A stretch of 64,000 bases of DNA from Escherichia coli. GTDB lineage: Bacteria; Pseudomonadota; Gammaproteobacteria; Enterobacterales; Enterobacteriaceae. Where the stretch lies: the NCBI RefSeq assembly GCF_003334305.1, contig NZ_QOWS01000003.1, one strand, 5' to 3'. Each line of letters starts with the position of its first letter. The stretch's first letter is position 1. Below the pieces are notes generated by a model. It had not been told where the DNA came from and ran no database searches. It saw only the letters and a program-made list of their open reading frames with translations. This document shows, one piece after another, positions 10,788 to 57,083 of this stretch. The translations under genes and the position numbers were made by a program.

Positions 10788-11618
10788 CTATTTACCAATA
10801 TAATTCCATTCACCATTTTTTAATTCAAACAGTTCTGGAAGAGATGACGGTTGCAGAGTCATGCGTTTGAGTGGCGCATCTTCATCACCGGGGATAACGT
10901 TATATCCCATTTTTGCATGGATCTCCGCGGTACCGGGATAGGCTTCTATACCAATTATTGGGTCATTTCCCATTCCAATATTAGCATTAAGTAATGCGGC
11001 AAGGGCGAATCCGGAAGAATTTGCTACCCCTGAGACAGTTATTATCTGATCAATATAGATATCAATTCTTGGCTGCTCATTGGTCCATCTTTTTGCCTGA
11101 GAAACTGGAAGGGTTGAAATATATCCTATCGTGGTTCCGGCGTAACCTGGAACATTGCAACCAGGGCCTAATGTTATTTCATGAACTGTATAGTCCTCAA
11201 CAGGATCGAAAGGGCTCTTCATAAATAAATTTAGCCGTAAACCTTCTGCTAATTCTGTAGCAGCATGCGCCTTTTTACATATACCACCATATATTTCGTC
11301 TAAAGCTGAGGTGATTTTCAAGTTTCGATAGAGCATACGTCCTGTTGTTGTAATACCATCGGATTCTCTGCATGCTTCTGTCACATAATTAAATGGCCAG
11401 GACTCTTTACTAATATCAAGTTTTCTAATTTCGACAACGCTTTTTCCATCGTAATTATGGTTATTGCCACGAGCAAGAGGCAGAAGATAGATATTTTCCG
11501 TATCCAGGCGAGCTCGTTCATATTTACGTGTTAACTCATTGTCGACTTTTGGGTGATGAAGGAAGTGATTATCTGTAATAATTTGACTCTGAAGGGCATT
11601 GCTTAATGGCATAGACAT
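10788..11618 (-). CDS. yjiC: Uncharacterised protein YjiC
   Basis: 276-aa ORF; AT-rich coding sequence flanked by AT-rich non-coding DNA; same position as K-12 yjiC between uxuR and iraD. No recognisable domain by eye. Confidence 0.75.
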   Translation of the reverse strand: MSMPLSNALQSQIITDNHFLHHPKVDNELTRKYERARLDTENIYLLPLARGNNHNYDGKSVVEIRKLDISKESWPFNYVTEACRESDGITTTGRMLYRNLKITSALDEIYGGICKKAHAATELAEGLRLNLFMKSPFDPVEDYTVHEITLGPGCNVPGYAGTTIGYISTLPVSQAKRWTNEQPRIDIYIDQIITVSGVANSSGFALAALLNANIGMGNDPIIGIEAYPGTAEIHAKMGYNVIPGDEDAPLKRMTLQPSSLPELFELKNGEWNYIGK

Positions 11619-12290
11619 AATAGTTACCTTTTAGGAGTATTTCACTGATGTTTAGAAAAATAGATAAATTTTTCTGTAGTAAAAAGAGAAGTAAACAAAT
11701 GACATGCATGTTTCTGTTGTAGTGATATCAACTCTACACGGTGATATTAAAGGGTAGGAAACACTCTAAAGTATCAAAAAACGCTCATTTGAAATTATTT
11801 TCATGCAATTAAAAAGCATATCTTATTACTAATTGGAATTTGATGTTGCTATATTGATGTCTATATTAATAATGCCTGTGAATGGTATTTTTGATGTATT
11901 TGATATGTTATCAATTTATATTATTTACAAACTAATTGTTTCAAATAATACATGGCTGATTATGCGGAAATAAATAATTTCCCACCGGAATTAAGTAGCA
12001 GCGGTGACAAGTATTTTCATCTACGTAACTATTCGGAATATTCAGAATATACTAGCGGTTTTTTTTTGAGTTTGATGATTTTTATCAAATCATGACTTTT
12101 TTCCTGAAAAGTCAGTAGATATTCATAGGCAAGTAAGGTTTTATACTTTGCTGACAGGATTCAGGCCTGTCTCAGACTGACATGGATGTAATGAACAAAA
12201 GGGAATGGCTATGGAAAATGAGCATCAATACAGTGGTGCCCGGTGTTCAGGGCAAGCCGCATATGTTGCTAAACGTCAGGAGTGCGCAAA

Positions 12291-12683
12291 ATGATGCGCC
12301 AATCACTTCAGGCTGTTTTACCTGAAATTTCAGGCAATAAAACGTCATTGCTGCGTAAATCGGTATGCAGCGATCTCCTCACTCTTTTTAATTCTCCTCA
12401 TTCGGCATTACCGTCATTACTTGTTTCAGGCATGCCAGAGTGGCAAGTGCATAACCAGAGCGACAAACATCTCCAGAGCTGGTATTGCCGTCAGCTGCGT
12501 TCTGCACTGTTATTTCATGAGCCACGGATTGCGGCGTTGCAGGTTAATTTTAAAGAAGCGTACTGCCACACTCTGGCGATCAGCCTTGAGATAATGCTGT
12601 ACCACGACGGTGAACCGCTAACGTTTGATCTGGTCTGGGATAATGGCGGTTGGTGTAGTGCGATGCTGGAGAATGTCAGCTAA
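12291..12683 (+). CDS. iraD: Anti-adaptor protein IraD (inhibitor of RssB-mediated RpoS degradation)
   Basis: 130 aa starting [17 protein letters not shown]; recognised IraD; long AT-rich upstream leader region. Confidence 0.85.
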
Positions 12684-54583: not shown

Positions 54584-55123
54584 TTACCCTCTGAATCCTG
54601 GTGGAATTTGGCTGTCAGGTTCACTGACCGTATTCACATCTCGTTTCGGCAGTCCGCCGTTGCTGGCACGACCGATTTGCAGGCTGCGCGCCAGTTTTTG
54701 TTGCCACTGTACATGGTGAAAGACTTTACCTTCCGCCTGCCAGTAGGCAATGAATGAGGTCAGTTCTTCGGTGGTCACCGGCTCTCTTAGCGCCACGCCC
54801 CATAGCGCCGCCAGGCGGATAAAGTCGGCATCGGGTTGCCAGTCCGGATACATGGCGAATTTCCCCATGGGTACAGCAACGGGAGCAGCTTGCGGTTCCT
54901 GATAGAGTTGATCGTCCAGAGCGACATCGCTTCCCGGACGCGCCAGCTTTTCTTCCAGCGCCAGCAGTTCAGCCAGGCGTGCAGGCGTGACGGCATAAAA
55001 CGCCGGGGCATTGTTAGCAAATACGGCAACCACACCGCCTTCAGCTTTTGCCAGAACGGTTTGGTGATCGTGTACCAGGGCGTCAATACCAACGACGTCC
55101 GGGGTCAAAACTCTGGAAGACAT
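54584..55123 (-). CDS. dnaT: Primosomal protein DnaT
   Basis: 179 aa from [16 protein letters not shown]; 2-nt gap to dnaC indicates the dnaTC operon. Confidence 0.9.
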
Positions 55124-55230
55124 ACTGTTTCTCAAATATGGAACGATGAACGAGAAGGGAGATAACTTTTATAGTAACACACGGAGGAGAGGTGGCTGTC
55201 TCTCATCCGCGTGCTTTAAGCGAGGCAATT

Positions 55231-55704
55231 TTATACGCGAGGGCGCTTGCGGTACAACCATAATCCAGGAATGGAAAGACCGATGGATAACGCACCAACA
55301 ATCGATGAAGCTGTAAGAAAGTTGGTTAACAGGGTAATCATCAACGGTTCGCTGTAACCTAACTGGCTGATTTTTACCGCCGAAATCATTGCGGTATAAG
55401 CCGATATGCCCGGGAACATAGGGATAACGGCCGCCACGGTAAACACTTTCGGATGCGCCAGATACCAGCGCGACCATTGAATACCAATGGTGCCGACCAG
55501 CATAGAAGCCATAAAGGTTGACCACTCAATATTCAGCCCGCTGGTCATTAAGATCATTCGTGAACCATGACCAATCGCGCCAAGCAGCGCACACCAGCGT
55601 AATGCCCGAACGGGAACGTTGAACACCATCGCAAAGCCGACCGCTGGAATGGCGGCGAGGATCATATCCTGCGCCAATGCAAACAGAAACTCGATCACAC
55701 CCAT
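55231..55704 (-). CDS. yjjB: Inner-membrane protein YjjB (putative succinate exporter subunit)
   Basis: 157 aa from [16 protein letters not shown]; hydrophobic; overlaps the yjjP 3' end by 10 nt. Confidence 0.8.
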
Positions 55705-56465
55705 CCGCGTAGCCCCCAAATCGTCAGTGCCATCACCACGCCGACGCAGGTAGCCAGTGTCAGCAGACTGGCGATCGCCCAGCGTGCCAGTCCGGTATTG
55801 ATGTGGCCTTTAAACATATCGGCGACGGCATTTATCAACGGAAATCCCGGCACCAGCAGCAGAACGCTGGCGGCCATCGCAATGGTGGGTGTATTGCTGA
55901 AGGTGGGAAGTTGCAAAAGCAAACCGGAAATAGTGGTGGCGGCGAAAGCGGTGAGGCAAAAGTTGATCTGTGGATGAAGATGACGTTGTGCCAGTAGCTG
56001 GCGGATATACATCGCGGCCGTACTGGCAAAGAAGGTGATGACGGCACCATCCCAGCCACCTTTATTGAGTTTACAGAAACAGGCGCAGGAAAGGCCAACC
56101 ATTAAGGCTACCAGCCATCTTGGGTAACGTAATGGCTGAATTTGGCTAAATCGTTTCTCTACGCCTTTGTAATCCAGCAGATGGTGCTCCGCCAGAATCA
56201 CAATGTGCTGGACTTCAGTCACCACATGCATATTAATGCCGCGATCGTGATTTTTACGTGTCGATGTCAGGCATTGCCCATCTTTAATGGTTGTCAGCAC
56301 TATGGCGTTCGAAGAGATAGAACTTTCAACGCTGTCCATTCCCAGCGCCCGACCCAGTCGTGAGGAAAGCTCATCAACCAACGCGCTTTCCGCACCATGT
56401 TGCAGAAGAAATAATCCACACTGGATACAAAGCCGTGTTACGGCTCGCTGTTGCTCAGTTTGCAT
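55695..56465 (-). CDS. yjjP: Inner-membrane protein YjjP (putative succinate exporter subunit)
   Basis: 256 aa from [18 protein letters not shown]; the longer ORF start is rejected. Confidence 0.8.
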
Positions 56466-57083
56466 AACTCGCCCTTTGTCATAGACGTGCTGCGTATTGT
56501 TCAGATAATGAGAATCCATTTGTATCATGAAGCACGGTTGTTTTGCGGTAGGTTAAGATCAAAATTGCGCTGATTAATCCTGGTTATCGGGACAAGCTCG
56601 GTGATAAAAAGCGAATTATCTCTCGCCGCAAACAAACTATCACATGAATATTATCACTATAATGAATTTATTGTTTGGCCTTTACGAATTAGGATAATAG
56701 ATAACCGGGCACGTTTTTTAATGTTAACAAGTTAAAACCATCAGATTTCATTGAATAAATATTGGTTGTGTGATTTTTCATTCTGCGGGAAGGGATATCA
56801 TTTAATTATAAATTAAATGAATGTGATTTCTGTTTTTCATTAAGTATTCCTAACAACTTAATGTAGATATTTTAAATGTCTCCAGGCTATTTCACCAGGT
56901 TATCATTTGATGCTAACCTTCTGACACATGCAGTGGAGTTGTTGTGCAGCAGGAGTATGCTGATATGAAAGTGAATGCTAAGGATAATTTATTCGCTTAA
57001 TCTATTAATTTGCTGGAAACATTTAAGGAATGAATATCCTGAATAAACCATCATGATTTTTAGACAGTGGATGTGGAGGAAAT

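Follow-up and report, generated by a model that had tools for sequence, protein, structure and literature searches.

The AT-rich spacer between yjjP and yjjQ-bglJ of Escherichia coli: a probable three-part, bidirectional control region under H-NS and LeuO

The spacer that separates yjjP from yjjQ in Escherichia coli is very probably the bidirectional control region of two divergent units, yjjP(-yjjB) and yjjQ-bglJ, which is silenced by H-NS, reactivated by LeuO, and organized in three parts. While the spacer and its control by H-NS and LeuO are already known, our analysis adds new but modest points, namely a three-part pattern of constraint, the retention of the arrangement across genera, and a conserved dyad upstream of yjjQ.

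Results

The spacer, its flanking genes, and its base composition

Within the window, a stretch of 64,000 nucleotides of E. coli DNA, the spacer occupies positions 56466-57083 and is 618 bp long, with no strand assigned, according to the annotation of E. coli A7 and MG1655. The start codon of yjjP ends at 56465 on the minus strand, and the ATG of yjjQ is at 57084 (RefSeq, E. coli A7 and MG1655). The flanking genes are as follows.

55695-56465, minus strand: yjjP coding sequence, 256 aa, a putative succinate exporter subunit whose transcription leads away from the spacer (RefSeq and ORF)
57084-58444, plus strand: yjjQ-bglJ operon, overlapping genes for LuxR-type regulators, controlled by the 56466-57083 spacer
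57084-57809, plus strand: yjjQ (RefSeq annotation and ORF)
57767-58444, plus strand: bglJ (RefSeq annotation and ORF)

The two regulator genes overlap by 43 nt, as is expected of an operon. No feature is annotated inside 56466-57083 in MG1655 or in the E. coli records listed for the spacer. A 951-bp query across the spacer showed E. coli A7 to be a 100% match to the window and was matched in 5425 of 5426 complete E. coli genomes. Compared with K-12 MG1655, the spacer is 99% identical, and because only 7 of its 618 bases differ, the literature on K-12 applies to it directly.

An in-frame ATG at 56528 would give YjjP an N-terminal extension to 277 aa and leave a spacer of 555 bp, but this start was rejected. 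The two candidate yjjP start codons are 52 nt apart in Citrobacter, which is not in frame, and indels are present in other genera. Because the 277-aa extension is not in frame in other genera, the 618-bp spacer and the 256-aa YjjP were retained. Stratmann and colleagues reportedly gave the spacer as 555 bp in 2008, a figure that fits the older yjjP start at window position 56528.

The window has 35 annotated gaps that measure 50 bp or more, with a median of 140 bp; the spacer is the longest of them, followed by gaps of 466 and 392 bp. Its GC content is 0.341, while intergenic gaps have a median of 0.444 and the window as a whole stands at 0.514. The TpA step is twice as frequent in the spacer, at 0.086 versus 0.044 in the window, and ten A/T-only runs of 7-19 bp are present, with no 10-11 bp periodicity of the AA/TT dinucleotides that would indicate A-tract phasing. 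The initial annotation had described an unusually long stretch of about 620 bp between yjjP and yjjQ-bglJ, AT-rich and dense in A/T tracts; its coordinates proved exact, and the length and composition of the spacer bear out the rest of the description.

Windows of 618 bp that are equally AT-rich make up 1.1% of all those within the window and form two tracts. The other tract, at window positions 11081-12478, comprises the 5' end of yjiC and the yjiC/iraD spacer, which has a GC content of 0.27 over 286 bp and contains the annotated small ORFs ytiD and idlP. This tract is likely a second H-NS-type region.

Published regulation of the spacer

The yjjP/yjjQ-bglJ region of E. coli K-12 (Stratmann, Madhusudan & Schnetz 2008, J Bacteriol 190:926) is the same locus with identical flanking genes, and its length, AT-richness, and divergent promoters, which in the window are predicted, match those of the window spacer with no substantive difference. 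In the passages of PMC5025477, PMC3950696, and PMC4264507 that cite Stratmann 2008, yjjQ-bglJ is described as repressed by H-NS and activated by LeuO, and yjjP as regulated likewise through H-NS repression and LeuO. The corresponding passages of these three papers also describe how BglJ-RcsB activates leuO, which creates a feedback loop with yjjQ-bglJ. In addition, genomic SELEX with the RpoD holoenzyme found the yjjP<>yjjQ spacer to be bound and flagged it as "HNS" (PMC3946193), and ChIP-seq of MarA in ETEC H10407 gave a strong peak in the same spacer with the MEME-predicted site gcatcaaatgataac (PMC5684230). Moreover, when E. coli colonises the mouse gut, IS insertions arise repeatedly in the spacer and confer a benefit; aerobically, yjjP expression rises about 2-fold with them (PMC5094792, PMC7064181, PMC12332998).

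Overall, the proposal of an H-NS-silenced control region that is opposed by LeuO matches published experiments on this very spacer, as described in PMC3946193 and in the relevant passages of PMC5025477, PMC3950696, and PMC4264507, and the published data contradict an absence of transcription and binding throughout the region. The H-NS/LeuO reading made in the initial annotation repeats known biology, which was characterised experimentally in 2008. Comparable control is known from bgl, the leuO upstream region, and casA (Pcas), which like the yjjP/yjjQ spacer are AT-rich and subject to H-NS repression that is relieved by LeuO; bgl shares the further likeness that its expression is activated by IS insertions. 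However, these three regions differ from yjjP/yjjQ, where one spacer controls two divergent units.

Sequence signals for H-NS and LeuO

The high-affinity binding motif of H-NS is the 10-mer TCGATAAATT. Matches to it are three times as dense in the spacer as in the rest of the window, and they are not enriched in the spacer relative to dinucleotide shuffles. Composition is the sole sequence-level signal for H-NS in the spacer.

For LeuO, we deduced the core ATATTCA-N5-TGAATAT from two sites, in the cas and leuO spacers of MG1655, following PMC6698644. The instances in MG1655 are ATATTCA-TACTG-TGAATAT at cas and ATATTGA-TTTGG-TGAATAT at leuO. Six core-like sites with at least 10 of the 14 positions matching are present in the spacer, compared with 1.3 in dinucleotide shuffles, and only 0.3% of the shuffles reach six. 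The best of them is the following.

57019-57037, no strand: best LeuO-core match, 12 of 14 positions (scan; 2.4% of shuffles reach 12)

Whereas casA/cas carries a perfect LeuO palindrome, the yjjP/yjjQ spacer reaches only this 12 of 14. The core-like matches agree with the presence of multiple LeuO sites and are supportive rather than proof, as the motif was deduced by ourselves from two sites.

Promoter-like and other elements in the spacer

A scan of the spacer found six sigma-70 promoter-like hexamer pairs, compared with 3.7 ± 1.8 expected. The individual elements, from the yjjP side to the yjjQ side, are as follows.

56519-56529, minus strand: conserved block CATGATACAAA, whose spacing is fixed across an alignment of 33 spacers from many genera
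56556-56562, minus strand: conserved block TTGATCT, upstream of CATGATACAAA, with a mean identity of 0.82 across non-Escherichia genera
56798-56820, no strand: perfect 10-3-10 palindrome TCATTTAATT-ATA-AATTAAATGA, AT-rich and E. coli-specific
56812-56840, minus strand: predicted yjjP promoter ATGAAA-17-TTTAAT, a prediction of RpoD genomic SELEX (PMC3946193) located in the window
56899-56913, minus strand: MarA box gcatcaaatgataac, an exact 15-mer match to the MEME-predicted site of PMC5684230
56960-56988, plus strand: predicted yjjQ-bglJ sigma-70 promoter CTGATA-17-GATAAT (scan; the same hexamers are given in PMC3946193)
57075-57080, plus strand: yjjQ Shine-Dalgarno sequence GGAGGA, whose GGAG core is invariant in 15 aligned species

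The GATAAT hexamer of the predicted yjjQ promoter sits in the block AAGGATAA, which is conserved in Escherichia, Citrobacter, and Salmonella. On the yjjP side, the block CATGATACAAA resembles an extended -10 element of the type TGnTAnAAA, a likeness that would suggest its function, and together with TTGATCT it probably constitutes the core promoter or an operator of yjjP. Readings of these two blocks as an FNR site, as a sigma-70 -35/-10 pair, or as a sigma-54 promoter were rejected, since either the spacing or the second half-site fails across genera. The palindrome at 56798-56820 was likewise rejected as a conserved operator; it is not conserved in the sister Escherichia clades, and it is marginal against shuffles, 2.6% of which have an arm at least as long.

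A 19-nt direct repeat with 79% identity is formed by positions 56793-56811 and 56898-56916 (GGATATCATTTAATTATAA and GGTTATCATTTGATGCTAA). The copy at 56898-56916 overlaps the published MarA box, and judging from its resemblance, the copy at 56793-56811 might be a weaker mar/sox/rob-type site.

Three-part pattern of constraint

Comparison of the spacer within E. coli, between Escherichia clades, and across genera divides it into three parts.

56466-56575, minus strand: constrained yjjP-proximal module, comprising the leader and the presumed core promoter
56576-56800, no strand: fast-evolving AT-rich centre of 225 bp, GC 0.342
56801-57083, no strand: constrained yjjQ module with the dyad, the MarA box, the conserved predicted -10, the LeuO-core-like site, and the ribosome-binding site

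Relative to the cryptic Escherichia clades, identity is 83-88% in the left module and 79-82% in the right module and drops to 55% in the centre, compared with 53-65% at fourfold-degenerate sites of the flanking genes. A similar picture emerges within E. coli, where comparison of the window with strains 536 and O157:H7 gave a divergence of 0-0.9% in the left module, 6.7-8.0% in the centre, and 1-2% in the right module, with 4-10% at fourfold sites. The centre thus evolves at the neutral rate both within E. coli and between clades. When 33 spacers were aligned, the centre was unalignable outside Escherichia and conservation was restricted to the two ends. At the yjjP end, the start and Shine-Dalgarno region is conserved along with CATGATACAAA and TTGATCT at fixed spacing, and at the yjjQ end, conservation covers the dyad at 56841-56853, the block AAGGATAA with the predicted -10, and the Shine-Dalgarno sequence.

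The centre is unusually polymorphic, with 55% of complete E. coli genomes only 90-95% identical to the window there; in a detailed comparison of three strains, the flanking modules do not fall below 98% identity. Such variation of the centre probably underlies the published use of the spacer as a host-source marker (PMC11267920). A repeat or the remnant of a mobile element was rejected as an origin of the centre, which is single copy in E. coli genomes and whose internal repeats are short and at chance level.

The simplest reading of this pattern is that the flanks hold sequence-specific sites and that the centre would act, if at all, through its composition, which suits H-NS. The neutral drift of the centre fits such a composition-based role and the absence of any role equally well. 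It is conceivable, although we regard it as unlikely, that the centre is functionless filler that became AT-rich by mutation bias, with all regulation residing in the two flanking modules. In favour of filler, the centre diverges at the neutral rate within and between species, most other genera, with spacers of 390-460 bp, lack it or have a much shorter one, and the matches to the H-NS motif do not exceed those in shuffles. However, a length of 618-627 bp and a GC content of 0.33-0.34 are kept for the whole spacer across Escherichia clades despite the turnover of the central sequence, and IS insertions in the spacer have phenotypes. Stratmann and colleagues are also said to have placed H-NS binding in the spacer centre.

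A conserved dyad upstream of yjjQ

One conserved short element on the yjjQ side is a dyad of the TTAG-N5-CTAA type.

56841-56853, no strand: dyad TAAGTATTCCTAA, which may be an operator tied to yjjQ and lies about 240 bp upstream of it

The family consensus of this dyad is T[TA]AG-N5-CT[TA]A. A search of genome contigs for YjjQ yielded 80 loci across Enterobacteriaceae, and in 44 of them the dyad lies 199-280 bp upstream of the yjjQ ATG; shuffling led us to expect 1.3 such loci and gave 5 at most. Because the dyad stands anywhere between 171 and 469 bp from yjjP, we assign it to yjjQ and not to yjjP. It is also kept where an insertion (pobA-pobR) separates yjjP from yjjQ, including the Klebsiella oxytoca group. 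Regulator binding sites, which the initial annotation had named as an alternative content of the spacer, are thereby represented by the enriched LeuO-like sites, the published MarA site, and this conserved dyad.

Several regulators were considered for the dyad. SlyA, a MarR-family protein, is an H-NS antagonist. Its operator, TTAGCAAGCTAA or TTA-N6-TAA, has the same TTAG(C)...(G)CTAA arms as the dyad, as seen for example in the Citrobacter dyad TTAGCCATGCTAA; however, the arms of the dyad are 1 bp further apart, giving TTA-N7-TAA. The dyad does not fit a SlyA operator on this basis, as all 44 loci that have it show TTA-N7-TAA, whereas the consensus in the relevant part of PMC5797941 requires TTA-N6-TAA. 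In addition, the portion of Table 2 of PMC5797941 that was considered does not list yjjQ among the transcripts that rise when SlyA is overproduced. The dyad also fits the generic LTTR pattern T-N11-A, and the right half of the E. coli dyad, TATTCCTA, is an exact match to the BglJ-RcsB core wwTTCykA. Compared with the RcsAB box TaAGaa|tatTCctA, the two halves are 2 bp closer in the dyad, and Citrobacter has AATGCTA. When the dyad was strictly tested as a SlyA, LTTR, or RcsB-type site, it passed as none of them. We tentatively consider that the dyad could be an uncharacterised operator, whether SlyA/MarR-like, for an LTTR other than LeuO, or for autoregulation by YjjQ/RcsB. Alternatively, it may simply coincide with a LeuO or H-NS footprint mapped in 2008.

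Other genera and natural variants

The divergent yjjP/yjjQ-bglJ arrangement, with a spacer of 390-710 bp and a GC content of 0.32-0.44 in loci whose surroundings have 0.48-0.55, is kept in many genera. These include Escherichia, many Citrobacter, S. enterica subsp. diarizonae, Enterobacter, and Lelliottia, as well as Leclercia, Phytobacter, Kosakonia, and Trabulsiella. An additional stretch of about 2.6 kb separates yjjP from yjjQ in Klebsiella, Kluyvera, Raoultella, and some Citrobacter (among the loci of our collection, L009-L012, L027, L032, L035, L040, and L066 are of this kind). Two proteins are encoded by the insert of K. pneumoniae (L071, positions 653-2735), a PobA-like flavin monooxygenase of 394 aa and an AraC-type regulator of 302 aa.

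Within E. coli, 24 of the 5425 matching genomes have no place that covers at least 80% of the 951-bp query. Two of the 24 were inspected (records L003, NZ_CP180597, and L091, NZ_OY754834), and in both, IS1 replaces part of the locus. In PS3Tanimalfeces2, yjjQ and the spacer are missing together with the 5' ends of both yjjP and bglJ. In GPT21-003_1, IS1 sits in the spacer centre with a deletion into yjjQ, and bglJ is intact, which recalls the laboratory bglJ-constitutive transposon allele.

Search for a hidden small RNA or small protein

The initial annotation had also suggested that the region might hide a small RNA. It is very unlikely that the spacer contains a small RNA gene missed by annotation or a structured leader RNA that regulates in cis, even though it is long, has the slight surplus of promoter-like hexamer pairs noted above (6 versus 3.7), and contains one weak terminator-like hairpin at 56627-56610 on the minus strand. 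The surroundings of this hairpin evolve at the neutral rate and are unalignable outside Escherichia, and the hairpin itself is not conserved. An Rfam scan of 55000-59500 on both strands returned no match at E ≤ 1. Folding of sixteen overlapping 150-nt windows on both strands revealed no unusually stable structure, with z-scores ranging from -1.16 to +1.91. The search for conserved RNA structure that had been recommended fared no better, as RNAalifold assigned the yjjQ leader of 15 species an energy of -2.7 kcal/mol and a covariation term of -0.2, which amounts to essentially no covariation and does not indicate a conserved leader structure. Likewise, no transcript-sized conserved block with its own promoter and terminator was found, the conserved blocks being 7-40 bp long and adjoining the flanking genes. 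No gene for an RNA or a small protein is annotated in the spacer in MG1655 or in the listed E. coli records, and our literature search found no small RNA placed in the yjjP/yjjQ spacer. The suggestion of a hidden small RNA thus finds no support in the Rfam, folding, RNAalifold, and literature results alike.

Least credible of all is a small protein encoded by the 30-aa ORF at 56876-56968 or the 44-aa ORF at 56601-56735, both on the plus strand. One sister-clade locus keeps the 30-aa ORF intact, and two cryptic-clade loci leave it open with no internal stop. However, it lacks a Shine-Dalgarno sequence, a fourth Escherichia locus has it truncated, and its amino-acid identity of about 50% at a nucleotide identity of about 80% is a pattern of non-coding DNA. 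All other ORFs of 30 aa or more that lie in the spacer or overlap it have stop codons in close relatives. Compared across Escherichia clades, none of the six ORFs of this size exhibited coding behaviour.

Discussion

The published and comparative evidence can be combined into a mechanism for the spacer as a bidirectional control region. H-NS binds the AT-rich spacer DNA, with repression of both promoters, and LeuO, a LysR-type regulator, binds the spacer at several sites and lifts the repression of yjjQ-bglJ; BglJ together with RcsB then activates leuO and closes the feedback loop, each of these steps being established in the literature. From the pattern of constraint, we infer that the centre at 56576-56800 may serve as a platform for the nucleation, filament, or bridge of H-NS through its composition and not through a specific sequence, and that the two flanking modules would carry the sequence-specific sites. 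Expression would change where an IS insertion or a deletion disrupts the spacer.

Studies of the LeuO/BglJ-RcsB feedback circuit and of IS-driven gut adaptation have used the spacer as a standard example since 2008. To these studies, the cross-genus comparison contributes a small refinement, in that it sets sequence-constrained promoter modules apart from a centre that is apparently constrained only in composition. If the dyad is indeed an operator, the regulator that binds it could provide the physiological signal, missing so far, by which the "silent" yjjQ-bglJ operon is switched on.
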